A stretch of DNA of 22,748 bases from a virus (lineage: Duplodnaviria; Heunggongvirae; Uroviricota; Caudoviricetes): IMG/VR virus record IMGVR_UViG_2534682096_000014. One strand, given 5' to 3'. This document shows positions 4,674-22,748 of the stretch, in pieces. The notes under the pieces are model-generated. The model did not search any database. It saw only the letters and a list, made by a program, of their open reading frames with translations, and was not told the origin of the DNA. The number at the start of each line of letters is the position of its first letter. The first letter of the stretch is position 1. The translations under genes were made by a program, and so were the position numbers.

Positions 4674-5277
4674 CACTCCCACATGGGGAAATCTCGGTAT
4701 ATGGGGCGACCGCCTTCTGGATGCACTGGAAACCTGTAACGCGGATAAACGGGCCATTGAATTACTGGAACAGCGCAGGCTGCAACGACTGAACAACGAG
4801 GATAACAACCATGCTGAAACTGATTCCCTGCGTGAAGCCATGACCCGTTCATGCCGATGGTGTCAGGCCAACCCGGAAAAATTCACCATTTTCGTGGAGA
4901 GCGGCAACATTGAAACGACCGGAGAAACGCCCTCGTTTGTTTACCGCTATCAGATGGTGATGTTTGTCATGGATTACGCCGGGGAGCTGGACGACCTCAC
5001 GCTGCCGCTGCTGGCGTGGTTATCCGAAAATCAGCCACAGTTGTTGCTCAACCCTGAGCGTAATCAGGACATCAAATTCTCCGCCGTTATCAATGACGAT
5101 GACAGCGCCGATCTCCTGTTTACGCTCCCCCTGCGGGAACGCGTTCGCATCACGCGCAGCAGTCAGGGCACACCGCAGGCAGAACACCTGCCGGAGCCAA
5201 AACCCCGCCTGCCCTCTTCCGAAGGCGACTGGTCGCATGTATTCCAGGATGTGACGTGGGGTGAAAGCGATGGATAA
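4534..5277 (+). CDS. lysC: o-spanin (LysC/Rz1-like lipoprotein) reading frame, open in-frame into the body of R; expected stop near 4821 is absent
   Basis: Lipobox LLTGC after MNAPTLCLTLV, Pro-rich region, +1 frame overlapping lysB (overlapped architecture); no in-frame stop until 5277. See findings. Confidence 0.45.
   Translation: MNAPTLCLTLVLLTGCAGTQNAPLPAPSVRLIPQTLTIPVTPPPFPDTPTWGNLGIWGDRLLDALETCNADKRAIELLEQRRLQRLNNEDNNHAETDSLREAMTRSCRWCQANPEKFTIFVESGNIETTGETPSFVYRYQMVMFVMDYAGELDDLTLPLLAWLSENQPQLLLNPERNQDIKFSAVINDDDSADLLFTLPLRERVRITRSSQGTPQAEHLPEPKPRLPSSEGDWSHVFQDVTWGESDG
4840..5277 (+). CDS. R: tail completion protein R (gpR-like) body; canonical-looking start ATG 4811 (MLK...) is out of frame with it
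   Basis: DSLREAMTRS...FTIFVESGN...LPLLAWLSENQP resembles P2 gpR; the first in-frame Met is at 4840; the frame-2 ATG at 4811 reads MLKLIPCVKP then stops. Confidence 0.55.
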   Translation: MTRSCRWCQANPEKFTIFVESGNIETTGETPSFVYRYQMVMFVMDYAGELDDLTLPLLAWLSENQPQLLLNPERNQDIKFSAVINDDDSADLLFTLPLRERVRITRSSQGTPQAEHLPEPKPRLPSSEGDWSHVFQDVTWGESDG

Positions 5278-5905
5278 GGCATTCACCCGCGTGGATGAAA
5301 CCTTTGAGGCCATCCGCGACAGCCTGAATCAGCAGGCCATCAATAACATCGCCAGAAAGCTGGCACAGGATTTACGCCGCGCCCAGCAGGCACGTATCCG
5401 GTCACAGAAAGCGCCGGACGGGACTGCATGGACACCACGCAGACGCCGCGTAACCCGGATACAGGAGCGCATTCGCTTTATCTGGAATAACGAAGCACGC
5501 ACGCTGAAAAACTGGCATCACGACACGGGGAAATACGGGCGAACCATTACCGGGTGGGATGAGGATAAAAACAATATCCGCACGTTTTACCGGGATGACA
5601 TCGACCGTTTTCTGGAAATACGCACCCGGCGCATCAACCAGGACAGCACAAAGCGCGTCCCCATGTTCGTAAAACTGCGCACCGCCCGCTACCTGAAAGC
5701 CCGTGCAGATGCTTCCGGTGTGACGGTGGGTTACAGCGGCGTGGCCGCACGTATTGCACGCGTTCATCAGTTCGGTGAGCGCGATCAGGTTGCGCCGGGC
5801 ATTTTCACCGATTACCCGGTACGTGAGCTGTTGGGTATCAGCCAGGCAGATGAGCGCCTGATTTATAACACGGTGCTGGGCCGGATTGCGGAGGCTGTAC
5901 GGTGA
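5270..5905 (+). CDS. S: tail completion / virion morphogenesis protein S (gpS-like)
   Basis: ORF 5261..5905; ATG 5270 overlaps the R stop; ARIARVHQFGE motif; position between R and V. GTG 5261 is an alternative start. Confidence 0.65.
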   Translation: MDKAFTRVDETFEAIRDSLNQQAINNIARKLAQDLRRAQQARIRSQKAPDGTAWTPRRRRVTRIQERIRFIWNNEARTLKNWHHDTGKYGRTITGWDEDKNNIRTFYRDDIDRFLEIRTRRINQDSTKRVPMFVKLRTARYLKARADASGVTVGYSGVAARIARVHQFGERDQVAPGIFTDYPVRELLGISQADERLIYNTVLGRIAEAVR

Positions 5906-6483
5906 GCGCAGAACTCATGCGACTGCTGAGCAACATCATCCGCACCGGGATCATCTCTGAAGTTGATGAGGAATCCTGGTGCGTGCGCGTTCGCAGCGGC
6001 GAACTGGAAACAGGCTGGTTGCGCTGGAACACCACGCGCGCGGGAGCCTTCAATGTGTGGCTGCCGCCATCACCAGGCGAACAGGTGGCAATTGCCTGCA
6101 TTGGCGGCAACCCGGAAACCGCCATGATAATCGGCAGCCTGTGGAGTGATGCCATTCCGGCACCCGGCAAAAGCCTGAAAGAAATCGTGGTCAGCGCGCC
6201 GGACGGCGCGGTGTTCCGCTACGACGCGGACGCAGGCGCACTGAGCGCCAGCGGCATGAAAACGGCCACCCTGCAGGCATCTGTCAGCGTGACACTGGAC
6301 ACGCCCGTCGTGGAATGCACAAACCTTCTGAAAACAGCCGAGATTGACGTCACAAAAGGGGGAAAGATGAGCGGCAATATCACGCACAGCGGCGGCGATT
6401 TCACCTCAAACGGCATCACAGTGCATACGCATAAACACGGTGGCGTTAAAGGTGGCAGCGATTCGACAGGAGGCCCGCAGTGA
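5902..6483 (+). CDS. V: baseplate spike / assembly protein V (gpV-like)
   Basis: 193 aa; C-terminal GNITHSGGDFTSNGITVHTHKH motif typical of gpV; GTG start overlaps the S stop. Confidence 0.8.
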   Translation: MSAELMRLLSNIIRTGIISEVDEESWCVRVRSGELETGWLRWNTTRAGAFNVWLPPSPGEQVAIACIGGNPETAMIIGSLWSDAIPAPGKSLKEIVVSAPDGAVFRYDADAGALSASGMKTATLQASVSVTLDTPVVECTNLLKTAEIDVTKGGKMSGNITHSGGDFTSNGITVHTHKHGGVKGGSDSTGGPQ

Positions 6484-8255: not shown

Positions 8256-10481
8256 ATGAGTACCACAACACGAAAATTTAAAACCGTTATCACCGATACG
8301 GGTGCAAAAAAATTAGCTCAGGCAGCCGCGCCAGATGGTAAGCCTGTCCGCCTGACTCATATGGCCGTGGGCGACGGTGGCGGCACGTTGCCCACACCAG
8401 ACAGTAAGCAGACCCGTCTGGTGCATGAGGTGTGGCGACATACTGTTAATCGCGTCATCCTGGACGCAACACATCAGAACCGCATTATTGCGGAGCTAGT
8501 TATTCCTCCTGAAACGGGCGGATTCTGGATCCGGGAAATTGGTGTATTTGATGAGCACGGCGATTTAATCGCGGTGGGAAATACTGCCGAAAGTTACAAG
8601 CCAGCCGTTGCCGAAGGGTCCGGTCGTGCACAAACATTTCGCACCATTCTGACCGTATCCAGCACTGCCACCGTGGCGCTTACCGTGGATAACACCATGG
8701 TGATGGCCACAGTGGATTACGTGGATGACAAACTGAAAGAGCATGAACAGTCACGACGTCACCCGGACGCCTCGCTGACCGCAAAAGGCTTTGTTCAACT
8801 CAGTAGCGCCACTAACAGCGTGTCTGAAACGCAGGCTGCAACGCCGAAAGCAGTAAAGGCCGCGTATGATCTTGCTAACGGTAAATATACTGCGCAGGAT
8901 GCCAGCACGACGCGAAAAGGCCTTGTCCAGCTCAGTAGCGCCACCAACAGCACGTCTGAAACGCAGGCTGCAACGCCGAAAGCAGTAAAGGCCGCGTATG
9001 ACCTTGCTAACGCAAAATATACCGCTCAGGACGCTACGACGGCACAAAAAGGGATAGTCCAGCTCAGTAGTGCCACCAACAGCACGTCTGAAACACTGGC
9101 CGCGACATCGAAAGCGGTTAAGGCGGTAATGGATGAAACGAACAAGAAAGCGCCCTTAAACAGTCCTGCGTTGACCGGAACGCCAACAACGCCAACTGCG
9201 CGACAGGGAACGAATAATACCCAAATCGCAAGCACGGCTTTCGTTATGGCTGCGATTGCCGCCCTTGTAGATTCGTCACCTGACGCACTGAATACGCTGA
9301 ACGAGTTAGCGGCGGCGCTGGGAAACGACCCGAATTTTGCGACCACCATGACTAACGCGCTTGCGGGTAAGCAACCGAAAGATGCCACCCTGACGGCGCT
9401 GGCCGGGCTTGCTACTGCGGCAGACAAGTTTCCGTATTTTACGGGGAATGATGTCGCCAGCCTGGCAACCCTGACAAAAGTCGGGCGGGATATTCTTGCG
9501 AAATCGACCGTTGCTGCCGTTATCGAATACCTCGGTTTACAAGAAACGGTAAATCAGGCTTCTGGCGCATTACAGAAAAACCAGAACGGCGCAGATATTC
9601 CAGGAAAAGATACCTTCACAAAAAATATTGGTGCATGTCGCGCTTTTCACAGTGCTATTAGTACAGGGGCAGGGAACTGGACAACGGCACAATTGATTGA
9701 ATGGCTGGATTCTCAAGGGGCATTCAATCACCCATACTGGATGTGCAAATGTTCATGGTCATACGGCAATAATAAAATTATTACCGATACTGGCTGTGGA
9801 ACTATTCATCTTGCAGGTTGCGTTATTGAGGTTATGGGTAATAAAGGTGCCATGACCATCCGTGTAACCACCCCGAGCACTTCCAGCGGTGGCGGAACTA
9901 CTAATGCACAATTTACTTATATAAACCACGGTGGAGATTATGCGCCAGGCTGGCGGCGTGACTACAGTACCAAAAATCAGCAGCCTGCATTTGCTTTAGG
10001 GCAGACAGGAAGCACTGTTGGAAATGACAAAGCTGTTGGATGGAACTCAAATAGCGGCGTTTATAATGCGACTATTAGTGGAGCGTCAACATTGATTCTT
10101 CACTTTAATATGAATGCGGGGAGTTGCCCGGCGGTTCAGTTCCGTGTGAATTATAAGAACGGCGGTATTTATTATCGTTCAGCGCGAGATGGTTATGGAT
10201 TTGAGGCTGACTGGTCAGAGTTTTATACCACAACACGCAAGCCATCAGCAGGAGATGTTGGTGCATATACCAAAGCCGAATCAGATTCTCGCTATGTACG
10301 AGATATTCGCCTGGGCACACGTGTTGTTCAGACTATGCAAAAAGGCGTGATGTATGAGAAATCAGGTCATGCAATTACGGGGCTTGGCATTGTCGGTGAA
10401 GTTGATGGCGATGATCCGGCAGTATTCAGACCAATACAAAAGTTAATTAACGGAACATGGTATAACGTATCGCAGGTATAA
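8256..10481 (+). CDS. H: tail fiber protein H (expressed variant in the current orientation)
   Basis: 741 aa; conserved P2 H-type N-terminus, three tandem 44-aa shaft repeats, variable distal part, conserved extreme C-terminus; the 3' portion lies inside the invertible segment. Confidence 0.85.
8787..9182 (+). repeat. tandem coding repeat, 3 x 132 bp (44-aa tail-fiber repeat, third copy diverged)
   Basis: [44 protein letters not shown] repeated with period 132 bp (copies begin at 8787, 8919, 9051). Confidence 0.8.
9520..9601. repeat. left inverted repeat of the invertible segment, including a gix/hix-like crossover site (ttatcgaatacctcggtttacaagaa, 9520..9545)
   Basis: About 71 bp (9531..9601) matches the reverse complement of 12502..12572 at 69/71 positions; the outer 26 bp resembles the recombination sites of Gin/Hin/Cin/Pin systems. 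Confidence 0.7.
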
Positions 10482-10483
10482 TC

Positions 10484-11017
10484 ATGCAGCATTTAAAAAA
10501 CATTGTCGCAGGTAATCCAAAAACCGTTGAACAATATCAGCTAACAAAGAATTTTAATGTTATCTGGTTATGGTCCGAAGACGGAAAAAACTGGTATGAG
10601 GAAGTGAAAAACTTTCAGGAAGATACAATAAAACTGGCTTACACTGTAGAGGGAATAATTGTTGCTATGGATAAAGATGTATCGGCAATTAATCCAGAAG
10701 GTTTAAGTGTCGTTGAGTTGCCTGATATTACAGCAAATCGCCGGGCTGATATTTCGGGGAAATGGATGTTCAAAGATGGCGTAGTGATAAAGCGAACTTA
10801 TACCGAGGAAGAGCAGAGGCAACAAGCGGAAAATGAAAAGCAAAGCCTGCTACAGCTCGTCAGGGATAAAACACAGCTATGGGACTCACAGCTACGGCTG
10901 GGTATCATTTCCAACGAGAATAAACAAAAATTAACCGAGTGGATGCTCTATGCGCAGAAGGTCGAATCCACAGACACCTCCAGCCTGCCAGTAACGTTTC
11001 CAGAACAACCAGAATGA
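10484..11017 (+). CDS. G: tail fiber assembly chaperone (gpG / Tfa), expressed copy
   Basis: 177 aa immediately after H; N-terminus [20 protein letters not shown]; paralog of the - strand ORF at 11046..11573. Confidence 0.8.
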
Positions 11018-11020
11018 AAC

Positions 11021-11040
11021 AAGGCCCGCTATCGGGCCTT
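11021..11040. terminator. hairpin between the convergent Tfa genes (aaggcccg ctat cgggcctt, then T-rich on the + strand)
   Basis: 8-bp GC-rich stem followed by aatttttatt; sits at the centre of the invertible segment. Confidence 0.4.
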
Positions 11041-11045
11041 AATTT

Positions 11046-11573
11046 TTATTCAGGCTTTTGTGGCCATTCAGGATTTGCCGTATCCACACGGCTGACCAGA
11101 ACACTATAGCGTTCCCATGACTCCAGTCGTGCGCGTTCCTCATCCGTCGCCATATTCAGCCTGACAGCGCGTTCCAGTGGCTGAATAACGTTTTCTGCTT
11201 CGGAAAGTAACGCGGCCTTTTGTGATTCGGCCTGTTGTTGTTGCTCGTCTGCCGTATAAATCCGTTTAACCACAGCTCCGTCCTTAAACATCCACTTACC
11301 GGAATCATCAGCACGACGATTAGCTGTAATATCAGGAACCTCAACGACGCTATAACCTTCAGGGTTAAGCGTGGAGGCATCTTTGGTGATGGCGACAATA
11401 ATATTATTTGCATCGTAAACAATCTTTATTGTGTCTGGCTGAAAGTTTTTCACTTCCTCATACCAGTTTTTTCCGTCTTCGGACCATAACCAGATAACAT
11501 CAAAATTCTTTGTTAGCTGATATTGTTCAACGGTTTTTGGATTACCTGACTTAATGTTTTTTAAATGCTGCAT
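11046..11573 (-). CDS. alternative tail fiber assembly chaperone (Tfa'), silent cassette partner
   Basis: 175 aa; first ~45 residues nearly identical to G, C-terminal third diverged; convergent with G. Confidence 0.8.
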
Positions 11574-11576
11574 AAT

Positions 11577-12566
11577 TTACACCTGCGCAACGTTATACCA
11601 TGTGCCATTGATGTATTTTTGTATTGGTCTGAATACTGCTGGGTCATCACCATCAACTTCACCGACAATACCAAGCCCCGTGATTACATGGCCTGATTTT
11701 TCATACATCACGCCTTTTTGCATGGTCTGAACAACACGTGTGCCAAGTCTGACATCTCTCACATAGCGGGAATCAAAGTTACCGTAATCCGAGGGGTTAA
11801 CACGCCCTGTAATATTTATGGTTTTATTACTTTGAATGCTGCCGGAGACAAAGCGCATAACATGGACGTTATTAGCATAAACATCCAGATACCCGTCGCC
11901 ATTTTGTTTAAATCCCGTGTCATTATCACCCAAAACAATCGAGTTACCGCCAAGAGCACTGGATGTTCCGATACCCAATGCACCATTCAATTGACCGCCA
12001 GATAATGACAACGCCCCAACCTCAGCAGCAGTCGGTTTAATGTGCGAACTGTAAATTACATATACAGTTCCATCTGTCAGGCCTGTTGGTTTATTCGCTG
12101 TATAAGTTGGTGATGTATGAATTTGTACAGTTGCATCCTTTGTATAATCCCACTGGATATTAACACCTGTGGCGTAATTACCTATTTCTACATAAATGTC
12201 ATAGGTATCACCGGATGTATTCACCCATGCAAAATTAGTAAATCCAACCGAGGTCCGTCGCCATAATGCACCAGTAAGACCTTTTGGATTTCCATTTCCC
12301 GCACGAAGAACAAGTTCAGATATACCAGCCTGCATAGGGGAGTTAACATTATATCCAGCACCACCAATCAGACTTATGTAAACCACGGAACTGGCTTGTG
12401 GCATTGTTACAGTTGCCAGTTTGAACCATCCAGCACCACCACTAAAAGACATGGTTGTTGAATTTGTTGTGCCGATATTACGCAGGAATAGTTTTTTATC
12501 GGGAATATCTGCGCCGTTCTGGTTTTTCTGTAATGCGCCAGAAGCCTGATTTACCGTTTCCTGCAA
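11577..12566 (-). CDS. alternative tail fiber C-terminal cassette (H'), promoterless in this orientation
   Basis: Begins inside the right inverted repeat with the same [21 protein letters not shown] junction as H residues ~428-448 (the apparent start is a TTG continuing an upstream reading frame); conserved C-terminal ~60 aa, different middle region. Confidence 0.75.
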   Translation of the reverse strand: MQETVNQASGALQKNQNGADIPDKKLFLRNIGTTNSTTMSFSGGAGWFKLATVTMPQASSVVYISLIGGAGYNVNSPMQAGISELVLRAGNGNPKGLTGALWRRTSVGFTNFAWVNTSGDTYDIYVEIGNYATGVNIQWDYTKDATVQIHTSPTYTANKPTGLTDGTVYVIYSSHIKPTAAEVGALSLSGGQLNGALGIGTSSALGGNSIVLGDNDTGFKQNGDGYLDVYANNVHVMRFVSGSIQSNKTINITGRVNPSDYGNFDSRYVRDVRLGTRVVQTMQKGVMYEKSGHVITGLGIVGEVDGDDPAVFRPIQKYINGTWYNVAQV

Positions 12567-12583
12567 ACCGAGGTTTTAGATAA
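12502..12583. repeat. right inverted repeat of the invertible segment, including a gix/hix-like crossover site (ttcctgcaaaccgaggttttagataa, 12558..12583)
   Basis: Reverse complement matches 9531..9601; the outer site is a near-palindromic 26-mer. Confidence 0.7.
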
Positions 12584-12637
12584 TGGCTGTTTCTGACCTG
12601 CATGGCATGATTTACGCTTTTGGACGGGAGATTCAGC

Positions 12638-13225
12638 GTGCTGATTGGCTATGTAAGGGTATCAACAAATGACCAGAATACAGACCTGCAACGAAACGCT
12701 CTTGTTTGTGCAGGATGTGAACAAATATTTGAAGATAAATTAAGCGGGACAAAGACAGACCGACCGGGATTAAAACGCGCTTTAAAGCGTCTTCAAAAAG
12801 GTGACACGCTGGTTGTCTGGAAACTGGATCGCCTCGGGCGAAGCATGAAACATCTGATTTCTCTCGTCGGGGAACTACGGGAGCGAGGGATTAATTTTCG
12901 CAGTCTGACCGACAGCATAGATACATCTTCTCCAATGGGGCGTTTTTTCTTCCACGTGATGGGTGCCCTGGCTGAAATGGAACGTGAATTAATTGTTGAA
13001 CGTACACTGGCCGGACTGGCGGCAGCGCGCGCACGGGGGCGCACAGGCGGACGTCGACCGAAGCTGACAAAAGAACAGCATGAGCAAATAGCAAGGCTGA
13101 TTAAAAACGGTCACGACAGAAAACAACTGGCAATAATTTACGGCATTGGTACATCGACGATTTATCGTTACCACCCCGCAGGAGAATCAAGCGGAACAAT
13201 AGAGAAGAGTCAGAAAACAAAATAA
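12638..13225 (+). CDS. DNA invertase, serine recombinase of the Pin/Gin/Hin/Cin family
   Basis: VLIGYVRVSTNDQNTDLQRNAL... with the catalytic-Ser motif and a C-terminal HTH; GTG 12638 preceded by GGAG; the ORF track starts at TTG 12620. Immediately adjacent to the invertible segment. Confidence 0.85.
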   Translation: MLIGYVRVSTNDQNTDLQRNALVCAGCEQIFEDKLSGTKTDRPGLKRALKRLQKGDTLVVWKLDRLGRSMKHLISLVGELRERGINFRSLTDSIDTSSPMGRFFFHVMGALAEMERELIVERTLAGLAAARARGRTGGRRPKLTKEQHEQIARLIKNGHDRKQLAIIYGIGTSTIYRYHPAGESSGTIEKSQKTK

Positions 13226-13252
13226 CCGCTAATCTGGCCATTAGCGGTTTTT
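13226..13252. terminator. hairpin + T-run after the invertase stop, possibly bidirectional (also downstream of U on the - strand)
   Basis: ccgctaat ctggcc attagcgg followed by ttttt. Confidence 0.5.
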
Positions 13253-13260
13253 GTGTTAAA

Positions 13261-13749
13261 TCAGAACAGCCCTTTAACTGAACTGGCCGCGCTGTTAAGA
13301 GATGATGTCACCTTATCTTTGAAGCCGGACAGCATATCGCTGAATGATGAGGATTGCAGGCGTTCCCGCAAATCCTCATCACAGCGTTCAAGGGTCAGTG
13401 AAAATTCTATCTTTTTCGCCTTACCGTAGCGATCAAACTCGGAACGGGTCGTATTCGTTTCAGTCAGCACATACATGCCGTAAATCTGCCCGACACTATC
13501 AATCAGAGGCCAGGGGCGTCCTGTATACGCCTGCGTGGTCAGCAGCGACAGCGACACTTCGCCACCTGTAATTTCAGGATAAAGCACACCAGAAAGAACG
13601 ATGCGATCATCACCTGCACCGATATACTGCCAGCTTGCTGAACGGTTAACGCGTTCATTTTTCACATGCCGCCAGCTTTTGTTTTGCTGTAACTGCTGAT
13701 GCGGCAACGTGCGCAGCTCAAAAACAAACATGCCGTAGATCATCATCAT
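13261..13749 (-). CDS. U: tail protein U (gpU-like)
   Basis: MMMIYGMFVFELRTLP...VLSGVLYPE..GG resembles P2 gpU; start chosen at the ATG 8 nt after GAGGAG; ORF track start is 13755. Confidence 0.8.
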   Translation of the reverse strand: MMMIYGMFVFELRTLPHQQLQQNKSWRHVKNERVNRSASWQYIGAGDDRIVLSGVLYPEITGGEVSLSLLTTQAYTGRPWPLIDSVGQIYGMYVLTETNTTRSEFDRYGKAKKIEFSLTLERCDEDLRERLQSSSFSDMLSGFKDKVTSSLNSAASSVKGLF

Positions 13750-13761
13750 GGCCATGACTCC

Positions 13762-16605
13762 TCAATCTTTATCGTAAAAACTGCCACGCCCGGCACGGGC
13801 ACGCCGTTCCATTTCTGCCCTGACCATTTCACCGACCAGTTTCGCCAGTTCGCGGGGATTCTGCGTAACAACGTTATGCAGATGAACATGAATTTCACCA
13901 CCAAATCCGGAGGCAACAGGCTCCCGGTTACGGGAAGTTACAGGAACTGATGCCACTGGAGATCGTATGGCCTCCGCCACCGGGCGGGAGCTGGCCGCAA
14001 CAACAGGGACCAGCGCCGGAGGCAGCGGAGCCGGGACCACGGGGGTGATATTAATTGCGGGGGCAGGCTTACTGACCTGCGCAATCTTCCGCTCCTGCCA
14101 CTCCCCACGAACAGCAAGTGCGCGGGGCAGGTTCTTAAAGACAATATCGCCGGGGCCAATGCGTTTTTTCGTCTCATCAACCAGCTTACCTGTGTTATCA
14201 GCAATTTTGCTGAGTCTGCGTAGCGTCCCGGTATTGCTGTCTGTGAGCGGTTTGTTGTCTTTGGGTTTATCACCTCCGGTGCCATTGCCATTTTCCACAG
14301 GCTTCGGCGGATTGATTTTCGCCAGGTCCCCCTGAAGTAAGGCAACCTTGTCCTGAAGAATGGCCGCACGCTGTGCATCTTCGATTTTCTTGCGCGCCCT
14401 TTCCGCTTCATCCGGAAGGACGCCAAGTTTTTCAAGTATCCACGCCAGCGTATCCAGTAGCATTTTTGCAGGTGTCAGAACAAGTTGTAACGCACCGCCA
14501 AGAACGTTACCGAATATCTCGCCAGCACTGGTACATTTATCCAGCGTTTCCTTGCTGGACTCCATCGGTGACAACAGCGATTTAAACCAGTTAAACACCT
14601 GGCTGATCCCGCTTCCGATTGCGTCAAAAACAGGACCAAACCGTTCAAAGGTTTCGCGCAACGGGGTCAGCCTTTCCATAATCCCGCTGAACACCCCGGC
14701 AAAAAATGCCCTGATGGGATCCCAGTATTTCCAGATAAGAACGGCAGCTCCGGCAAGCGCAGCCACGATAAGACCAACCGGACTGAACAGCGCTCCGATA
14801 GCGCCTCCCAGCAAAGAAACGGAACCCGTCAGCATTCCCCACAGCGCAGGCAACACCCTGACGACATTCATTGACCGGGTAAGAATGTCAAAACCAAGAC
14901 GCAGGGTGGCCAGCTTTCCGTAAAGCACCCCAATAACCAGCGACAACGAGCCAATCGTTGCAGTCATTGCCAGCAACGCACCGCCTGCTATCAGTAGCTG
15001 GCGTGTCAGTACCGGATGGGCCTGCGCCAGCGAGGTGATTTTTTCAAGCACCCGCGTGAGCCACTGCGTGACAGAACGCAGCGGACCGTCAACCAGATCA
15101 CTGATGCGAATACGAAGACCTTCCCATGCGCTGTCGAGATTTTTCAGGTCCCCATCAAGATTATCGGCCATTACTTTTGCAACGCGATCGGCCTCTCCCT
15201 TTGCCCCCTGCAATTCTCTGGTCAGTTTTTGCAGCTCTCCTGAACCAGCCGCCGCAACAAGCGTCTGCAAACCAACGAACGCCTCTTCTCCGGCGATGTC
15301 CTTGAAGAAGGAAACCTGGTCCACCTGTCCGTATTTTTGTGTCGCCTTATAGAGATCAAGCAGCACATCCTCCATCGGGCGCATTTTGCCTCTGGCGTCA
15401 GCAACTGACACCCCCAGCTCTTTCAGCGCATCAGCCGCAGCTTTTGGCGGTGATGCTAGGCGGGACAGACTTGCGCGCATGGCCGTACCAGCATCGCTTC
15501 CGCGAAGACCATTATTGGCAAGCATCCCGGCCATGGCCGTCGCTTCTTCAAGACTGATACCAAGTTTTGCGGCAACCGGACCGGTATACTTCATGGTTTC
15601 GCCCAGCGCGCGTAAATCAGTATTGGTCCGGGTGAATGCTGCTGTCAGCGTATCGCCAACCCGGTCCATTTGATCGGCTGTCAGGTTGAACTGTGTGAGG
15701 ATATTGGAGCCTATATCAGCCGTCTCGCCGAGTTCGACGCCACCTGCCAGCGCCATATTAAGAACACCGGGCAATGCGGCCTGAATGGCCTGCGGAGTAA
15801 AACCAGCCATTGCCAGAAAGCTCTGCCCACTGGCGGCATCACTCGCAGTAAACTGTGTTTCAGAGCCAAGTTTTAACGCCTGCTCACGCAGCGCCTTAAA
15901 CTGCGGGCTGTTTTTGTCGATTCGCGTCAGTGCCTGAACGCGGGACATCTCTTTGCCGAACCCGATCGCAGGCTGCAAAAAACGCCCGGCAGCATAGCCG
16001 CCAGCCGCTGCCGCACCAATTGCCAGCGCACCACCTGTTTTCAGTTTTCCCGCGTTTTCCTGCGCGCGCGAATACCGCTCACGCGCCCGCGTTACACGCG
16101 CAAGCGCCTGCCGTTCGCGTTCAAGCTGGTTGTTGTACTGTTCGGTGCGTCTGATGGCCTGCTGGATGGTGTTATCGCTGCCTGTCAGGGAAATGCCGTG
16201 GCGTTTCAGCTCTCCGCCAAGCTCCCGCATTTTCTGAATTTCCCGTGTGCGCGATTCATTCAGGCGTTCAAGCCGGGTGCTTAACTGCTGCATCAGCTTT
16301 TGTTGTTTTTCGCTGAGCACTGTACCCGTGCGTTGTAACTGATTAAGGGCGTTAAGCTGGCGTCGTGCTTTCACGATGCCCGCATCCGCTTTACTGACAG
16401 CGTCACGGGCGCGCTCAAATGATCGCGCCTGACGCTCGAGATTTTTGATCGCCCCCTGCGTTCGCTGGATGGAGTCACCAAACTGCCCCATCAGGCGGCG
16501 GGCGTTTTCGGCAGGCCGGGTCAGCCTGTCAACGGCGCTGAAAGCGACCCGGATATCAAGAGTCTTCATTGTCTGCATTCCCGCTGCGAAGTGCCGCCCG
16601 CTCAC
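13762..16605 (-). CDS. T: tail tape measure protein (gpT-like)
   Basis: 947 aa, Ala/Gly-rich with coiled-coil N-terminal part and hydrophobic central segments; lies between E/E' and U. Confidence 0.85.
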   Translation of the reverse strand: MSGRHFAAGMQTMKTLDIRVAFSAVDRLTRPAENARRLMGQFGDSIQRTQGAIKNLERQARSFERARDAVSKADAGIVKARRQLNALNQLQRTGTVLSEKQQKLMQQLSTRLERLNESRTREIQKMRELGGELKRHGISLTGSDNTIQQAIRRTEQYNNQLERERQALARVTRARERYSRAQENAGKLKTGGALAIGAAAAGGYAAGRFLQPAIGFGKEMSRVQALTRIDKNSPQFKALREQALKLGSETQFTASDAASGQSFLAMAGFTPQAIQAALPGVLNMALAGGVELGETADIGSNILTQFNLTADQMDRVGDTLTAAFTRTNTDLRALGETMKYTGPVAAKLGISLEEATAMAGMLANNGLRGSDAGTAMRASLSRLASPPKAAADALKELGVSVADARGKMRPMEDVLLDLYKATQKYGQVDQVSFFKDIAGEEAFVGLQTLVAAAGSGELQKLTRELQGAKGEADRVAKVMADNLDGDLKNLDSAWEGLRIRISDLVDGPLRSVTQWLTRVLEKITSLAQAHPVLTRQLLIAGGALLAMTATIGSLSLVIGVLYGKLATLRLGFDILTRSMNVVRVLPALWGMLTGSVSLLGGAIGALFSPVGLIVAALAGAAVLIWKYWDPIRAFFAGVFSGIMERLTPLRETFERFGPVFDAIGSGISQVFNWFKSLLSPMESSKETLDKCTSAGEIFGNVLGGALQLVLTPAKMLLDTLAWILEKLGVLPDEAERARKKIEDAQRAAILQDKVALLQGDLAKINPPKPVENGNGTGGDKPKDNKPLTDSNTGTLRRLSKIADNTGKLVDETKKRIGPGDIVFKNLPRALAVRGEWQERKIAQVSKPAPAINITPVVPAPLPPALVPVVAASSRPVAEAIRSPVASVPVTSRNREPVASGFGGEIHVHLHNVVTQNPRELAKLVGEMVRAEMERRARAGRGSFYDKD

Positions 16606-17085
16606 GCCAGCTAACCACTTCGCCGGGCGTCATCATGAAGATTTCGGCGGGCGACCAGTTAAAAATGGCGGCAATATCCGCCACAAAGTCTTCTATGTGC
16701 TCAAAGCACACAACCGTGATCAGGCTTCCGTCGCCTGTTCGTTCTTCCCGCCAGAGTCCGCACCGCTCAAAAAATTTACGGCAACCACACATAACTGAAT
16801 AAAGTCACGGGATGCCATTTTTTTGATCGTCACTTCATCCAGTCGCGGTGATGTCACGCGTGACAGCAGCGTAAACATGGATTCCGCTTTCAGATTCAGC
16901 ACATCAGACAGCGACAAATCTCGCAGAGATCCAGCCTGCTCAATAGCCCCGGTGATCTCCACATACGTGATTTTTTCGCCGCCTCGCTCAATTGGTTGGG
17001 TAAGTTTTACGCCACGCTCACTGGTTTCTTTCACAGTGTCAGTAACTACCGTGTTTTCGGTATCGATGTTTTTCGTCTCTTTCAT
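16556..17085 (-). CDS. tail assembly chaperone E+E', product of a -1 programmed translational frameshift
   Basis: After slipping at the heptamer the -1 frame reads FFERCGLWREERTGDGSL..., which is the C-terminal part of ORF 16556..16792; this is the conserved G/GT-type arrangement upstream of the tape measure gene. Confidence 0.6.
16720..17085 (-). CDS. E: tail assembly chaperone E (gpE-like), zero-frame product
   Basis: 121 aa ORF upstream of T; contains the TTTTTTG slippery heptamer near its 3' end. Confidence 0.7.
   Translation of the reverse strand: MKETKNIDTENTVVTDTVKETSERGVKLTQPIERGGEKITYVEITGAIEQAGSLRDLSLSDVLNLKAESMFTLLSRVTSPRLDEVTIKKMASRDFIQLCVVAVNFLSGADSGGKNEQATEA
16768..16774 (-). 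other. slippery heptamer TTTTTTG (seen as caaaaaa on the + strand) for the E/E' -1 frameshift
   Basis: Direct reading of the minus strand: gta aat ttt ttg agc. Confidence 0.6.
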
Positions 17086-17139
17086 CAGGAAACTCCTTTC
17101 AGTCAGAGGCGACGCACTGCGCCGCCTGCATATTACTTA

Positions 17140-17652
17140 TCAGCCAAGCCCGAGCGCGGAACGGATGCGATCGGGCACAATGTCCTTGCCGTCCTTCCGG
17201 TAAATGAAGTTCAGCAGGTCAATCTCCCACAACGGGCGATCGTTAACACTCAGCTTGTAGTAGGTGTTTTTAATGGCGTAAGTGTGTGATGTGGCTTCGC
17301 CCTGTTTGGCTTCCCCCATATCAATTTCCGTCACACGTCCGCGCATTTCGACTTCATACAGGTCGCTTTCTGCATCGGTGTAGTATTCACCCGCAAAACG
17401 CAGCAGCGTGCCGTCAATCGTGCCGCCATACTTAAGGAACAGCTCACGAACTGCGCCCCCCATGACAAAGCTCGCATCAAGCGCGGAGTCGTCCAGACCG
17501 AGATCAATACTTACCGCACCCATCATGCCACCACCCCGGTAGCTGTCGGTTTTGCGCGTCAGCTTAGGCAGAGTGACGGACGTCACCTTACCCACTTCGT
17601 TTTCACCATCCACAAACAGCGTAAAAAAGCGAAGATGTTTTGGTACAGCCAT
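17140..17652 (-). CDS. FII: tail tube protein (gpFII-like)
   Basis: 170 aa, position and size as P2 FII; follows FI. Confidence 0.85.
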   Translation of the reverse strand: MAVPKHLRFFTLFVDGENEVGKVTSVTLPKLTRKTDSYRGGGMMGAVSIDLGLDDSALDASFVMGGAVRELFLKYGGTIDGTLLRFAGEYYTDAESDLYEVEMRGRVTEIDMGEAKQGEATSHTYAIKNTYYKLSVNDRPLWEIDLLNFIYRKDGKDIVPDRIRSALGLG

Positions 17653-18836
17653 CAGGCACCTCCCAGCACCGCAAATGCGGGACCAAAGAATTCATCAGTA
17701 AACGACTGGTAAAGCTCCATGTCTTCCAGCGGGGGAACAGGCGTATATTTGTAGCGAATACGCACGCGCCCCTGACGTAAATTCGTGGTGCCGTTATCCA
17801 CCACGTCATACCAGCACGACGCCCCAATCAGTTTCCCGGCAGTAACCAGTGAATCCAGTTTTGCCCTGATGGCACTGATAACATCTTTCACGTTCGCAGG
17901 CGTCAGTGGACTGTCGATGGTTTCAAACTGCGCTTCCGCAATTGAATCAGCCAGCACCTGTGCGGTTCGGGTATACACCTCAAAGATGTAGGCGTTCGTT
18001 TCCGGTGTGCGGTTGCCCCAGAAGCGGAACCCATTGCGACGAATAATGGTCGTGATTTCTTTGTTGTTGAGGCTGTTGGCATCACTGTCTTCGGCCTGCA
18101 ACGACCAGAACACATGCCTGGACATCCCCAGCACATTTTTAACCGGAACGTTGGACAGCGATTTGTGCCAGCCCTGCTCATGGTCAATGTACGCACGAAG
18201 GCCGCACGCATAGGCAGGCGCGGGGAACGTTTCGTTTTTGCCACTTTTCGGGTTGTAGGCGATGAAGTCCGGCCATAAGAGCATCACCTCACGTTCGTTG
18301 AATTTCTGGCGGTAGGTAATCGCCTCAGCCATCGTGTTACAGCCGTGACATGAGGCATACACAAACGCGCGCAGTTTACCCGCAATCACGCACAGGGATT
18401 TTGTTACCGCCTCCGTGTCCAGCTCCGGCGCGGCCAGAATACGCGGACGGTATCCGATGCTTTCATCCTGCTCTGCAACAAGCAGCGCATACATCCCCGT
18501 ATAGCTGCCGTCATCCTCAGAACCACCGATAACCAGTTGATCCTGCGTCTTTCCGTCTTCTTCTTTGTGTTCAGCCACGCGAACGACGATCACCTTTGTG
18601 CTCACCTGGTCTGCGATGGCCTTAAGCGCACGATAAAGCGTCCCCGTTGTCCCGCATTTTCCCAGCACGTCATTGACGCGGGTCAGCAGTGTGGGCTTGT
18701 TCAGCGGGAACAGCTTCGCATCCGCATCATCCGCCGTTGCCACGATACCGATAACACTGGAATCAACATCATTAATCGCTGTTACCAGGTCGGTACTTTC
18801 CGTAACACGGGCACCATGAAAACGAGTTTCACTCAT
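17652..18836 (-). CDS. FI: contractile tail sheath protein (gpFI-like)
   Basis: 394 aa, size as P2 FI; its stop overlaps the FII start. Confidence 0.85.
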   Translation of the reverse strand: MSETRFHGARVTESTDLVTAINDVDSSVIGIVATADDADAKLFPLNKPTLLTRVNDVLGKCGTTGTLYRALKAIADQVSTKVIVVRVAEHKEEDGKTQDQLVIGGSEDDGSYTGMYALLVAEQDESIGYRPRILAAPELDTEAVTKSLCVIAGKLRAFVYASCHGCNTMAEAITYRQKFNEREVMLLWPDFIAYNPKSGKNETFPAPAYACGLRAYIDHEQGWHKSLSNVPVKNVLGMSRHVFWSLQAEDSDANSLNNKEITTIIRRNGFRFWGNRTPETNAYIFEVYTRTAQVLADSIAEAQFETIDSPLTPANVKDVISAIRAKLDSLVTAGKLIGASCWYDVVDNGTTNLRQGRVRIRYKYTPVPPLEDMELYQSFTDEFFGPAFAVLGGA

Positions 18837-18992
18837 AGCTTCAGCCCCTTGTATCCGTTAAATGATTCGGCAACAATCATCACCCACCACGCGCGTAATC
18901 TCACCCCTGCGCCGTTCTCCCGCCACGGCGACAACAAAAAGCAGTAACCCCCTCCGCACGCACATGCGACCATGCCGCACAGGGAGGGAAAG

Positions 18993-20093
18993 ATGACCGA
19001 CACCACCATGCAATTGCTCAGTCAGGGCACAGACCCCGTGAAAATGCCGGATTTTGATATTCTCGCGGAGGGGAAAACGCTGTCCGGCGTGGCAGAGCGC
19101 CTGATGAGTCTGTCACTGACCGACAACCGGGGATTTGAAGCGGACCAGCTCACCATCACGCTGGATGATGCGGATGGTCAGTTGCAGCTACCGCCACGGG
19201 GCGCGCGCCTGACGGTTCTCATTGGCTGGAAAGGAGAACCGCTGACAGAAAAAGGCACTTACATTGTTGATGAAATCGCTCACGAAGGACCGCCGGACAG
19301 GCTGACTGTTTCAGCCAGAAGCGCAGATTTTCGGGATGAATTTAACGTTAAACGTGAGGTGTCCTGGCATGATGTGACCATTGAGCGTGTGGTATCCGCC
19401 ATCGCTCATCGGTATGGTCTGAAACCGCAAATCAGCGAAATGCTGATGGATATCGAAATCGACCACGCCGACCAGACTGAAGAAAGCGACATGTCCTTCC
19501 TTACGCGCATGGCGGAAATGCTGGGCGCAATCACCACGGTAAAAAGCGGTAATCTGTTATTCATCATGCCCGGCGGTGGCGTGAACGCACAGGGCCAGCC
19601 GTTGCCATCGTTCGCCATCACACGCAGCAGCGGCGATCGCCATCAGTTCCGCATTGCTGACCGCGAGGCGTATACGGGTGTACGCGCCTACTGGCTTGAT
19701 CTTAATTACGGGAAAAAGAAAAAAGTCAGCGTGAAACGCCGCAAACCGAAAAAGGAGAAAAGCAGCAGCCGGGAAGGCGACTATATGGAAGGCGCGGAAG
19801 GCAACGTGTTTGTGTTACGCAAGACTTATCAGAACGAGCAGGCAGCAAGACGTGCAGCGGCGGCAAAGTGGCAGCAGCTACAACGCGGAGCCGCAGCGTT
19901 CTCCATCACGCTGGCGTGTGGACGTGCAGAACTCTATCCCGAAATGCATGGCACGGTGACAGGCTTCAAAAGTGACATTGACAATCAGGACTGGATTATT
20001 GCAAAAGCCGAGCACACCATTGACAACAGCGGCTTTACCACTCAGCTTGAGCTTGAAGCAAAAATCCCGGAATGGATAGCAGAAACAGAGTAA
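18993..20093 (+). CDS. D: tail protein D (gpD-like)
   Basis: ORF 18972..20093; ATG 18993 follows GGAGGG by 5 nt; about 366 aa, comparable to P2 gpD. Confidence 0.8.
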   Translation: MTDTTMQLLSQGTDPVKMPDFDILAEGKTLSGVAERLMSLSLTDNRGFEADQLTITLDDADGQLQLPPRGARLTVLIGWKGEPLTEKGTYIVDEIAHEGPPDRLTVSARSADFRDEFNVKREVSWHDVTIERVVSAIAHRYGLKPQISEMLMDIEIDHADQTEESDMSFLTRMAEMLGAITTVKSGNLLFIMPGGGVNAQGQPLPSFAITRSSGDRHQFRIADREAYTGVRAYWLDLNYGKKKKVSVKRRKPKKEKSSSREGDYMEGAEGNVFVLRKTYQNEQAARRAAAAKWQQLQRGAAAFSITLACGRAELYPEMHGTVTGFKSDIDNQDWIIAKAEHTIDNSGFTTQLELEAKIPEWIAETE

Positions 20094-20287
20094 ACAACTT
20101 AGATGCATTAGCCCTGACATTTGTTAACGCGCCTACAGCAAGAATCATAACCAATCTGACAGCCTACCAAGTGTCAAAATCAGAAGTACCTTACATTAGA
20201 ATATGTTAATTTGTAGCAAACAAATTTACACACAAATGATTACTGCTGAAATAGCGCCCATAAATGCCATGTCAGAGGATCCATGTT

Positions 20288-20941
20288 ATGAATATGCAAC
20301 CAGCAGCCACAGTTGCTGCAGTCTGCCTTGCTGCATATTTTGCTTTACGAAATGAACGTAAAAAGAAAGCACTTGAGATTAGAACAACTCAACTAGATCG
20401 AATATCTGAGCTAGTAAACCGAGCATCTACCAATTTGATGCAATATACAGGTAGCCTTGCCTCTATACTGGAAGCGCGCGCCAAAGAAGATTATCGACCG
20501 AACAAAAAATTTGACATTAATGTAATTAGCAAATGGAAAGATTGCCTCGATGAGAGTGAGGTCTGGGCGATTGATATACAGCAACTCAGAGCATGTCAGC
20601 ACAGCCTGGAGTTTCATCGTGAAAAAGAATGGGCTGAATGGAAACAAATAATTCCACCATTACTTGATAAAATTGATCAATTCTTTCTCATATCTAAGCC
20701 AGGGCAACCTGTTACGTTTATAAATAGCCAAAACAAAACAGCTGATGAACTACTTGATTTCTCAAGATATTTGAGAGCTCAAACAGCAGAAATTGAATCA
20801 GTACGTCGGCAGTTACTTTCCCAAATGAGAAAAGAATTCAGCGAGTTGACTAGCTTTAGACCTATCACAATATTTAGCCTATTTAAATCAATAAAGAAAA
20901 ATGTCATGCAATTTTTCTGTATCGGCGCTCTTAAAAATTGA
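20288..20941 (+). CDS. hypothetical membrane-anchored protein, AT-rich cargo (moron) gene, function unknown
   Basis: ORF 20264..20941; ATG 20288 lies 8 nt after AGAGGA; N-terminal hydrophobic segment AATVAAVCLAAYFAL; clearly AT-richer than flanking phage genes; AT-rich upstream intergenic region and downstream hairpin. Confidence 0.5.
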   Translation: MNMQPAATVAAVCLAAYFALRNERKKKALEIRTTQLDRISELVNRASTNLMQYTGSLASILEARAKEDYRPNKKFDINVISKWKDCLDESEVWAIDIQQLRACQHSLEFHREKEWAEWKQIIPPLLDKIDQFFLISKPGQPVTFINSQNKTADELLDFSRYLRAQTAEIESVRRQLLSQMRKEFSELTSFRPITIFSLFKSIKKNVMQFFCIGALKN

Positions 20942-21090: not shown

Positions 21091-21351
21091 ATGTTTCGTT
21101 GTCCGCTTTGTGGCGCATCTGCCCGTATCCGCACCAGTCGTTCGGAAAATGATTCAGATACCGTGCGGAAAAAATATTACCAGTGTAACAACCTGGAATG
21201 CGGCGTATGCTTCTCAACACTGGAGGCTTTCCATAAATTCACATCGAAACACGCCCCAGGCGTTCACTCTTCAGAGGGCATCCCGTGGAATGAGCTGCCA
21301 GCTTCGCACAGGGGAAACAACCAAATGAGTTTGCCCTTACCTCAGAATTAA
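21091..21351 (+). CDS. ogr: Ogr/Delta-family zinc-finger late transcription activator
   Basis: MFRCPLCG...YYQCNNLEC has the CxxC-N22-CxxxxC arrangement of P2 Ogr; GGGAGG RBS; 86 aa. Confidence 0.8.
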   Translation: MFRCPLCGASARIRTSRSENDSDTVRKKYYQCNNLECGVCFSTLEAFHKFTSKHAPGVHSSEGIPWNELPASHRGNNQMSLPLPQN

Positions 21352-21411
21352 CAGGCTGAATTGCCGGAGTAACAAAAAAGCGATAGATTACGCGCGGGTG
21401 CCTTTCGGCTG

Positions 21412-21624
21412 ATGGCTGGAGGGAATACCCGAAGGCCAGATGTGGAAAGGCCCCGGAAAACATTTCTGTTTAACCGAGGCCCTGACCATCTAACCTTAGC
21501 AAGTGATAGGTTAGCGCCTCCCCAAAAAAGGAGCAAGCGCTATGTCGCAAAAATCGCTTATGGCCATCACGTTCTGCGTGACGGTAATCCTCATCATCTG
21601 GATGCTGCACGGTTCGCTGTGTGA
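21412..21624 (+). CDS. mok-like overlapping reading frame of the hok-family locus
   Basis: 70-aa ORF overlapping the 5' two-thirds of the hok-like ORF in another frame, as in hok/mok/sok loci. Confidence 0.35.
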   Translation: MAGGNTRRPDVERPRKTFLFNRGPDHLTLASDRLAPPQKRSKRYVAKIAYGHHVLRDGNPHHLDAARFAV

Positions 21625-21682
21625 AATACGGATGAGCTTCTGGGGAGCGGAGTTTGCGGCGTTCTTACAGTGTAAGCAGTAA
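21542..21682 (+). CDS. Hok/Gef-family small membrane toxin (type I toxin-antitoxin)
   Basis: 46 aa MSQKSLMAITFCVTVILIIWMLHGSLCEIR...; single TM helix followed by the SLCEIR motif shared by Hok/Gef/RelF; AGGAG RBS 8 nt upstream; below the 60-aa cutoff of the ORF track. Confidence 0.6.
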   Translation: MSQKSLMAITFCVTVILIIWMLHGSLCEIRMSFWGAEFAAFLQCKQ

Positions 21683-21771
21683 GGAAACCGCGACGGGGGA
21701 GCAATCCCCCGTCAATCGGTTGCTAAGGCTGGCCGAAGTGGCACCCTATCCCATGGACACAAACAAGAAAA

Positions 21772-21802
21772 CCCGCAGCGTAAAAACTGCGGGTTTTCTT
21801 TT
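21772..21802. terminator. rho-independent terminator (cccgcag cgtaaaaa ctgcggg ttttctttt), probably bidirectional
   Basis: 7-bp GC stem followed by a T-run on the + strand; A-run on the other side. Confidence 0.5.
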
Positions 21803-21873
21803 GGAGCTCTCACTTAGCTAGGGTACCGTTAACAACACACATAATGCTCGCAAAACAAACCAGTTAAAAGTGA

Positions 21874-22155
21874 TTACTCAGCATTCTCCTGCTTCCATTG
21901 CCGGATCATTTCATCCGTAACATCACTCTCATAACATACCACGTCATACCCTCCAGTACGGCTATATGCACTGCGTCTACCACATCTACTACCATTCCTT
22001 GCATGATTATAAGGACACGCACAATTGCCTGGATACGATTCAATGGATTCTTTAATTATTTCTTTCTTGATCTGAGCATCAGACTTTCCTGTTGCTGCAT
22101 ACCCACTAAAAGATACCAAACAAAAACAGATTGCCATTAATAAACCACATCGCAT
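21874..22155 (-). CDS. hypothetical small secreted cysteine-containing protein
   Basis: ORF 21874..22269; likely start at the internal Met giving signal-peptide-like MRCGLLMAICFCLVSFSGYAA; CACPYNHARNGSRCG motif; AT-rich. Confidence 0.4.
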   Translation of the reverse strand: MRCGLLMAICFCLVSFSGYAATGKSDAQIKKEIIKESIESYPGNCACPYNHARNGSRCGRRSAYSRTGGYDVVCYESDVTDEMIRQWKQENAE

Positions 22156-22439
22156 ACCGATACACTCTATTACTAACCAATCATAACCCACATCATAAAA
22201 TCGAGATGTGGAGTACAACACCTTTAACAAGAAGGTGTCATAACGATAATATGCCGTGCAATTCATCAAAAAAAAGATCTATATCAAAGAGATAGAGCTC
22301 TTATCAGTGCTGCAGACATCGGCATTCGAGGCAGCAGAAAAACAGTAAATCTGACGATTTTGCCTTTTCTCAGGATGTTGTCAGATTAAAAAAGACAGAT
22401 TAGCGCAGGTACCTTTTGGTGGATGGCAGGAGGAAAAAT

Positions 22440-22545
22440 GAAGTCGAGTGGAAAAATCCCAGAAAAATTTTTGTTTAACCGAGGTCCTAGTTCACTATGC
22501 GAAATACGGAGGAGCTGCAGGAGAATTCGGCTTCATCCTTAGAGT
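22440..22545 (+). pseudogene. decayed second hok-family locus (leader region plus a C-terminal CEIR.. remnant, internal deletion)
   Basis: 22408..22495 is about 75% similar to the hok leader at 21408..21500 (shared gtttaaccgagg(c/t)cct); gaaatacgga matches the hok CEIR-coding region but the N-terminal half is missing. Confidence 0.35.
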
Positions 22546-22623
22546 TTAAACAGCACGTGCACTACTATTGTTTCTGCATATCGCCACACCATCGCCACTC
22601 CACCGCCATTGCACAAAATACAA

Positions 22624-22651
22624 ATACAAAAAAACCACCCGAAGGTGGTTT
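22624..22651 (-). terminator. rho-independent terminator downstream of the tRNA-Leu gene
   Basis: Minus strand reads aaaccacc ttcg ggtggttt followed by tttttgtatttg. Confidence 0.5.
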
Positions 22652-22695
22652 CACGACACTGCTTATTGCTTTGATTTTATTCTTATCTTTCCCAT

Positions 22696-22748
22696 GGTAC
22701 CCGGAGCGGGACTTGAACCCGCACAGCGCGAACGCCGAGGGATTTTAA
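22696..22748 (-). tRNA. leuZ: tRNA-Leu(UAA), 3' portion only (gene continues beyond the window end)
   Basis: Minus strand reads ...TTAAAATCCCTCGGCGTTCGCGCTGTGCGGGTTCAAGTCCCGCTCCGGGTACCA: anticodon loop with UAA, long variable arm, T-arm and ACCA end; matches my recollection of E. coli leuZ. Confidence 0.8.

Follow-up and report, generated by a model that had tools for sequence, protein, structure and literature searches.

In phage P2, according to its reference record, the tail genes FI-FII-E/E'-T-U-D and the activator gene ogr are co-stranded with V-W-J-I-H-G. In the tailed-phage (Caudoviricetes) DNA analyzed here (IMG/VR record IMGVR_UViG_2534682096_000014; 22,748 nucleotides, hereafter the window), the block U-T-E/E'-FII-FI (13261-18836) is on the minus strand, whereas the flanking invertase gene and D, as well as the fiber genes H and G, are on the plus strand. 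How did this block come to be inverted, and from where would the separated gene D be transcribed? We propose, with a probability of about 0.8, that a single ancestral inversion was fixed in a clade of P2-like prophages, that the gap between FI and D acts as a divergent pair of late promoters and that the adjacent invertase is unrelated cargo.

Orientation and distribution of the FI-U block

Open reading frame (ORF) mapping and domain searches (Pfam and PHROG) identified the window as the late region of a P2-family phage; its plus strand holds the genes for head, lysis, tail completion and baseplate ahead of the fiber genes. The genes of the block, together with D and the activator gene, are the following:

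13261-13755, minus strand: gpU homolog, a tail protein encoded at the end of the leftward F operon (Pfam Phage_P2_GpU, 5.8e-38)
13762-16605, minus strand: ORF of the gpT tape-measure protein (Pfam PhageMin_Tail), with the likely start at ATG 16569 as in Escherichia phage P88
16556-16792, minus strand: E' extension (Pfam Phage_P2_GpE)
16720-17085, minus strand: gpE (PHROG 103 and 1756 for the E/E' pair)
17140-17652, minus strand: gpFII tail tube (Pfam Phage_tube, 7.5e-47)
17652-18836, minus strand: gpFI tail sheath, with which the leftward F operon begins (Pfam sheath domains)
18993-20093, plus strand: gpD, baseplate hub/late control D, detached from U (Pfam Phage_GPD; PHROG 52 at 1e-164)
21091-21351, plus strand: Ogr/Delta-family zinc-finger late activator, downstream of D (Pfam Ogr_Delta, 2.4e-14)

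The tblastn identities to P2 were 45% for FI, 42% for FII, 32% for E, 45% for E', 33% for T, 46% for U and 49% for D, and those of capsid protein N (42%) and baseplate protein J (54%) were in the same range; the Ogr homolog was 39% identical to P2 Ogr. By these similarities, FI, FII, E, E', T, U and D are true homologs of the P2 genes. E and E' are joined by a predicted -1 frameshift at a P2-type slippery heptamer, TTTTTTG (16774->16768), which lies inside the E/E' overlap. The most likely start of D is ATG 18993, which is preceded by the Shine-Dalgarno sequence GGGAGGG at 18982-18988 and gives a protein of 366 amino acids, as in P88.

The window resembles the P2 F operon (P_F-FI-FII-E/E'-T-U-D, followed by ogr) in the genes from FI to U and their internal order, the E/E' frameshift heptamer, the Ogr/Delta activator and a dyad that precedes the predicted start site of FI by ~55 bp, the -10 element being at +48.5. 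It differs in that the block and its promoter are inverted relative to V-G and D, that D, separated from U, has a predicted promoter of its own, and that the operon and the invertase gene end at a common hairpin. FI through D do not form one co-directional operon on the fiber strand, which is the canonical arrangement of P2. Because the P2 record has FI-D-ogr on the V-G strand, the difference in orientation is real, and the sequence-only reading of the window was right that FI to U are inverted as a block while D keeps the plus orientation.

When window positions 12500-20200 (7.7 kb) were compared with phage records by megablast, 13 records aligned collinearly in one piece at 92-97.5% identity, spanning the invertase gene, U...FI and D. 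These include P88, phages 500465-2, 520873 and 503458, Citrobacter phage PhiSM and others of the genus Xuanwuvirus. P88 aligned over 99% of this region at 95.5% identity, and its annotation has a strand layout identical to that of the window; PhiSM was collinear across invertase-U...FI-D at 93.1% nucleotide identity. Over the 7.7-kb region compared, the window is by alignment part of a P88-like (Xuanwuvirus, Peduoviridae) P2-family prophage, which differs from P88 and PhiSM in its fiber variable region and in an extra 225-amino-acid ORF between D and ogr. Both P88 and PhiSM are inducible, plaque-forming and viable temperate phages (PMC5285337, PMC6456863).

The same order is common in Escherichia coli. 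At least 80% of positions 12600-20100 was found collinear in one place in 1349 of 5426 complete genomes, and an 831-bp FI-D junction was intact in 1358 of the 1379 genomes with any match to it. In many O157:H7 genomes, the match stops at query position 6739, inside D, beside an IS30-family transposase, and the prophage lineage in those genomes is probably defective. Outside Xuanwuvirus, Klebsiella phages Kp4847-1 (Reipivirus) and Kp4876-2 (Reginaelenavirus), whose FI is 70 and 67.5% identical to that of the window, respectively, also have D (71 and 70%) divergent from FI and J on the strand opposite FI.

When one genome for each bacterial species was scanned with an FI alignment as the query, 80 loci were obtained, the orientation of which was scored by tblastn. 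All 33 loci with an FI identity of at least 67% were inverted: D was on the opposite strand ~1.3 kb upstream of FI, U was co-directional with FI at +4.8 kb, J, where detected, was on the opposite strand beyond U and ogr, where detected, followed D. H, where detected, was also on the opposite strand beyond U, save in locus L024, whose best H match was co-directional with FI and is probably an alternative fiber copy beside the invertase of that locus. These 33 loci came from 17 enterobacterial genera, including Salmonella, Citrobacter, Edwardsiella, Enterobacter, Kosakonia, Pantoea, Erwinia, Klebsiella, Raoultella, Serratia, Yokenella and Symbiopectobacterium, and from one contig doubtfully labeled Vagococcus. 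This 226-kb contig (NZ_JBQPOM010000071.1), which is labeled Vagococcus sp. (a Firmicute) and has an FI 98% identical to that of the window, is probably a contamination or a mislabeled assembly. All 47 loci with an FI identity of at most 51%, which include Pseudomonas, Acinetobacter and many enterics, had the canonical order. FI identity across the species loci was bimodal, and the partition by orientation was perfect.

On this comparative evidence, the inverted FI-U block is the normal, ancient and fixed order of a large enterobacterial clade of Peduoviridae. The simplest reading of this clean split would be that the block was inverted once, long ago, at the base of the clade. The P2 gene order is therefore not universal in P2-like prophages, about one quarter of complete E. 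coli genomes carrying the inverted block. The sequence-only reading had offered a lineage-specific rearrangement as one of three origins and had held that several independent related prophages with this orientation as their normal order would tell against its proposals; many such prophages were found, which disposes of the more exotic origins and leaves the lineage-specific one standing.

Within the literature collection that was searched, no paper was found to describe the inverted block, and the papers on P88 and PhiSM (PMC5285337, PMC6456863) do not comment on it. The layout has been public in annotated genomes since the deposit of P88, and it is a lineage-wide variant of a known organization, not a new kind of element.

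The FI-D intergenic region

With D starting at 18993, the FI-D gap is 156 bp (18837-18992); the sequence-only reading had given 135-156 bp, of which the upper value is thus the likely one. The gap contains these candidate elements:

18916-18933 (center 18924.5), no strand assigned: Ogr-type activator dyad TCT-N12-ACA (extended GTTCT-N12-ACAACAAAAAG), a conserved motif
18881->18876, minus strand: predicted P_F -10 element GATGAT, with a predicted start site near 18869
18965-18973, plus strand: predicted P_D extended -10 element TGcGACCAT, with a predicted start site near 18980

The two predicted start sites (18869 and 18980) are 111 bp apart and symmetric about 18924.5. The same type of motif is found in the divergent P-O gap (154 bp) of P88, which reads GTTCT-GGCCGTTTTCTT-ACAACAAAAG, while the FI-D gap reads GTTCT-CCCGCCACGGCG-ACAACAAAAAG with the same polarity. 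Within the 35.8 kb of the P88 genome there are just two exact copies of TTCT-N12-ACAACAAAA, one in each of these gaps, against a chance expectation of ~0.001 exact matches.

Conservation was assessed with 35 distinct FI-D gaps of the inverted clade. The dyad T[C/G]T-N12-ACAAC was exact in 32 of them and one substitution off in the other three, while its N12 spacer varied freely. On the D side there is an invariant TG-n-nAnnnT, whose last T is 48.5 bp from the dyad center in 33 gaps and 49.5 bp in 2; its invariant positions are the TG, A(-11) and T(-7) of an extended -10 element. On the FI side, the bottom strand carries a GAnnAT-type hexamer with its last T 48.5 bp from the center in 34 of the 35 gaps. 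This geometry is that of P_P/P_O in P2, where the mapped start sites of P and O (3016 and 3127) are each 55.5 bp from the center of a TGT-N12-CCA dyad and nAnnnT hexamers end at +/-48.5 from it.

As a control, 40 canonical loci with a recognizable dyad upstream of FI were analyzed. The FI-side hexamer was present at +48.5 or +49.5 in all 40, whereas a mirror-side -10 element was found in only 5, which is approximately the chance rate, compared to 35 of 35 gaps of the inverted clade (p = 3.8e-16). By this control, the FI-side promoter would be the inherited P_F and the D-side promoter a clade-specific gain at the mirror position. We infer that one Ogr-type site drives both directions, as at P_P/P_O of P2; the site can serve both because it is dyad-symmetric. 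We consider it rather likely that the FI-D gap is an inversion-born, mirror-symmetric, Ogr-dependent bidirectional promoter in which the activator site of P_F has been reused for D. The comparison of these gaps also supports what the sequence-only reading had anticipated, namely that D would need a promoter of its own and that P_F would read leftward from the FI-D gap.

In the proposed scenario, the segment P_F-FI-FII-E/E'-T-U would have been inverted once in the ancestor of a clade that covers Xuanwuvirus, Reipivirus, Reginaelenavirus and many unclassified prophages, and the order would have been fixed thereafter. The cut would have fallen between U and D, so that D came to lie next to, and to point away from, the Ogr-binding site of P_F with its dyad symmetry. 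Precisely at the mirror position, a -10 element would then have arisen or been selected. Two divergent late promoters would thereby share one activator site at about -55: P_F would read leftward through FI...U to the hairpin at 13224-13249, and P_D rightward through D towards ogr. In its genes and regulatory logic the late region matches P2, and it would depart from P2 in two respects: the segment formed by the promoter and FI...U is inverted and fixed, and late control has a second bidirectional region.

The likeness to P_P/P_O of P2 lies in one dyad placed midway between divergent late units, in a geometry identical to that predicted here, and in the GTTCT-N12-ACAACAAAAG motif that the 154-bp P-O gap of this lineage carries. 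Unlike P_P/P_O, which serves packaging and head genes, the pair in the window is predicted to control tail genes (FI...U versus D), and its second, predicted promoter appears to be an evolutionary gain after the inversion. The S homolog of the window overlaps the V homolog (window 5261-6483), so that a P_V promoter would have no space, and in P88 the late-promoter motif lies in the P-O and FI-D gaps only. From these two observations, the O operon may extend over ~11 kb as far as G, and the late genes may be driven from two bidirectional regions, P/O and F/D. If the FI-D gap is such a promoter, only two bidirectional control regions would drive the late genes of the clade, and an activator site at -55 that serves either direction would have absorbed a large rearrangement of an essential operon. 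The inverted clade indicates that an essential late operon can be split by inversion and yet stay functional. The predictions are precise (two start sites 111 bp apart, one dyad and Ogr), and P88 and PhiSM are culturable.

It should be noted that a search of the window for exact TGT-N12-ACA returned no site. A conclusion from this search that the window has no Ogr-type site would be misleading, as the site in the window is TCT-N12-ACA and the P2 sites are inexact as well. A dyad CGCCGT-N9-ACGGCG (18910-18930) was rejected as a functional element; it falls in the variable N12 spacer and is not kept in other genera. The similarity of the P-O and FI-D gaps in GATTAC(C)GCGCG was also rejected, the copies being of opposite polarity and not conserved. 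A generic sigma-70 scan of the gap found no consensus promoter, as expected for activator-dependent promoters, and Rfam searches at gathering thresholds found no RNA family anywhere in the window.

A small hypothetical coding sequence (CDS) spans the FI-D intergenic region in the annotation of P88 (gp50, 12315-12446) and in many RefSeq E. coli records; D is often annotated from a later start. This CDS is probably spurious because it overlaps the conserved dyad and -10 elements.

The DNA invertase and other explanations of the inverted order

The region to the left of the tail block contains the invertase gene and the fiber genes; H, G and their alternative forms were taken from the ORF map:

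8256-10481, plus strand: fiber gene H
10484-11017, plus strand: G
11046-11573, minus strand: alternative G'
11577-12566, minus strand: alternative H C-terminus
9520-9545, no strand assigned: left gix-type crossover site (20/24 versus the half-sites of the right site)
12558-12583, no strand assigned: right gix-type crossover site TTCCTGCAAACCGAGGTTTTAGATAA, which bounds the fiber segment with the left site
12620-13225, plus strand: ORF of a Gin-type serine DNA invertase (Pfam Resolvase, 1.5e-50, and HTH_7), with the likely start at GTG 12638
13224-13249, both strands: hairpin, predicted bidirectional intrinsic terminator common to the invertase gene (plus) and the F operon (minus)

Read from GTG 12638, the invertase has 195 amino acids, which matches the P88 annotation (588 nt). 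The sites at 9520-9545 and 12558-12583 are the sole gix-type sites in the window; they bound a 3-kb fiber segment and are both contained in a 93-nt inverted repeat (9516-9608/12495-12587). The segment boundary and gin show 92-95% nucleotide identity to the G-segment end and gin of Mu/D108. As a positive control, a synthetic flipped fiber-segment junction was collinear in 19 E. coli genomes, and the native one in 124. Strain AH20J067, the closest relative of the window with a prophage 99% identical to it over the tail block, matches the flipped junction at 100% identity and has the fiber segment in the opposite orientation. The fiber segment (9533-12570) thus qualifies as an invertible segment: it comes with a serine recombinase, is bounded by two inverted gix sites and is seen in both orientations. 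In P88-like prophages of ST131, the GpH segment has been reported to invert reversibly (bioRxiv 10.1101/2022.05.07.487787). The U-to-H distance varies by several kb between species loci.

The invertase is unrelated cargo: a Mu-type gin in a variable site between G and U that flips the fiber segment alone. Its segment is like the Mu G segment with Gin (and the systems of P1 Cin, e14 Pin and Salmonella Hin) in having two inverted gix sites around ~3 kb, alternative fiber C-termini plus assembly genes, and both orientations in E. coli genomes. Unlike the Mu G segment, the tail block is no substrate, with no sites and no second orientation seen. The role of the adjacent Gin-type invertase is confined to that of a fiber host-range switch. 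Of the two fiber-assembly genes, the minus-strand G' shares 95% identity with P2 G and the plus-strand G only 59%, a contrast that points to a recent mosaic exchange of fiber modules with P2 itself.

At the left end of the tail block is a hairpin (13224-13249) that is flanked by U-runs in both directions. Its predicted folding energies on the two strands are -15.7 and -16.1 kcal/mol (z = -4.0 and -5.1), which 0 of 200 shuffles matched. U and the invertase gene converge on this predicted bidirectional terminator, as the sequence-only reading had noticed.

Gin-family enzymes occasionally act on degenerate sites, and the invertase gene adjoins one end of the tail block. Taken together, these points would favor the view, also put forward in the sequence-only reading, that the adjacent serine invertase inverted the 5.6-kb block via pseudo-gix sites, either as a recent accident or as a programmed switch. 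The results argue strongly against it. The degenerate gix-like half-sites expected at the block junctions were searched for, and the best candidates scored 13/24 and 14/24, no better than shuffles, 45 and 16% of which, respectively, scored as high; nor did a search of the window find inverted repeats that bracket the block. A synthetic flipped (canonical) U->D junction was collinear in 0 of the 1410 genomes that hold both halves, whereas the true substrate, the fiber segment, was flipped in 19. An invertase gene beside the module was found in 4 of 33 inverted and 7 of 47 canonical species loci (Fisher p = 1.0), so that 29 of the 33 loci of the clade have the inverted order without it, as do many E. 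coli prophages. Many of the E. coli matches begin only at the stop codon of U, and in the O104:H4 prophage a serine acetyltransferase gene takes the place of the fiber cassette and invertase gene, with U...FI(-)/D(+) unchanged. Conversely, Fels-2 has an invertible fiber segment and an invertase gene followed directly by FI...U-D-ogr. Like other canonical P2-like prophages, it resembles the window in carrying this cargo at the same position, between G and FI, and differs from it in the canonical orientation of FI...U-D-ogr. Because Fels-2 keeps the canonical order, an adjoining invertase does not imply inversion of the block. The tail block thus lacks both marks of an invertible segment, crossover sites and two orientations among close relatives. 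Recent or ongoing inversion of the block by the invertase is effectively refuted, and we regard this explanation as very improbable. That the inverted order is an assembly or scaffolding artefact in the window, a further suggestion of the sequence-only reading, has a practically negligible probability: nothing beyond the departure from the P2 order speaks for it, and it is refuted by the presence of both junctions in over 1300 complete genomes that were assembled independently (1358 with the FI-D junction intact) and in the genomes of the viable phages P88 and PhiSM. An inverted FI-U block accordingly gives no reason, in annotation, to suspect a rearrangement, an artefact or the action of an invertase.

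Two other explanations accept the order as natural. Because P2-like late regions are mosaic, as the G/G' contrast and the Mu-like fiber cassette of the window illustrate, a foreign FI-U module could have been acquired in the opposite orientation by modular exchange and not by inversion in situ. We think this quite improbable, given that the divergence of FI-U from P2 (32-46% identity) is on a par with that of D, N and J, that the identities of FI, U and D co-vary across the clade and that the FI-side promoter has the dyad and -10 geometry of canonical P_F. Alternatively, the inversion could be ancient and D could lack a dedicated Ogr-dependent promoter, in which case the D-side elements could have another role: they could extend P_F upstream, bind a different regulator or act as a constitutive or early promoter of D-ogr. 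Consistent with such a role, the start sites are predicted from sequence and the predicted leader is very short, and P2 ogr has its own non-late promoter (P2 annotation), a precedent for an Ogr-independent promoter on the D side. This alternative is nonetheless unlikely. The invariant D-side positions are exactly those of an extended -10 element, they lie at a fixed mirror offset (48.5 bp in 33 of 35 gaps) that matches mapped P_P/P_O of P2, and the element is absent in the canonical relatives; moreover, D, a late structural gene that is essential, has been cut off from the operon that once preceded it.

Several points weigh against our preferred explanation, a single old inversion with a bidirectional late promoter in the FI-D gap. 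The single inversion is deduced from the bimodal protein identity and the perfect partition. Both start sites and their Ogr dependence are predictions from comparative sequence evidence. The TCT of the window dyad departs from exact TGT-N12-ACA, although the mapped P2 sites are inexact too. Finally, the predicted D leader of ~13 nt, which begins ~2 nt before the Shine-Dalgarno sequence, is short.

The region downstream of D

A hok/gef (MokW-like) toxin gene is annotated downstream of D in P88, and a Sok/Hok-type RNA was not found by Rfam at gathering thresholds in the window, including 21400-22748. For an ORF on the minus strand at 21874-22269, the only matches were to PHROG families of unknown function. 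Between D and ogr, the ORF map has one additional gene:

20264-20941, plus strand: orphan ORF

In most clade members, ogr directly follows D. The orphan ORF encodes 225 amino acids, is low in GC (~39-43%) and had no match in Pfam, PHROG or PADLOC; it is possibly a cargo or defense gene. At the same spot, the O104:H4 prophage has a DUF3800 gene and an IS5 element.

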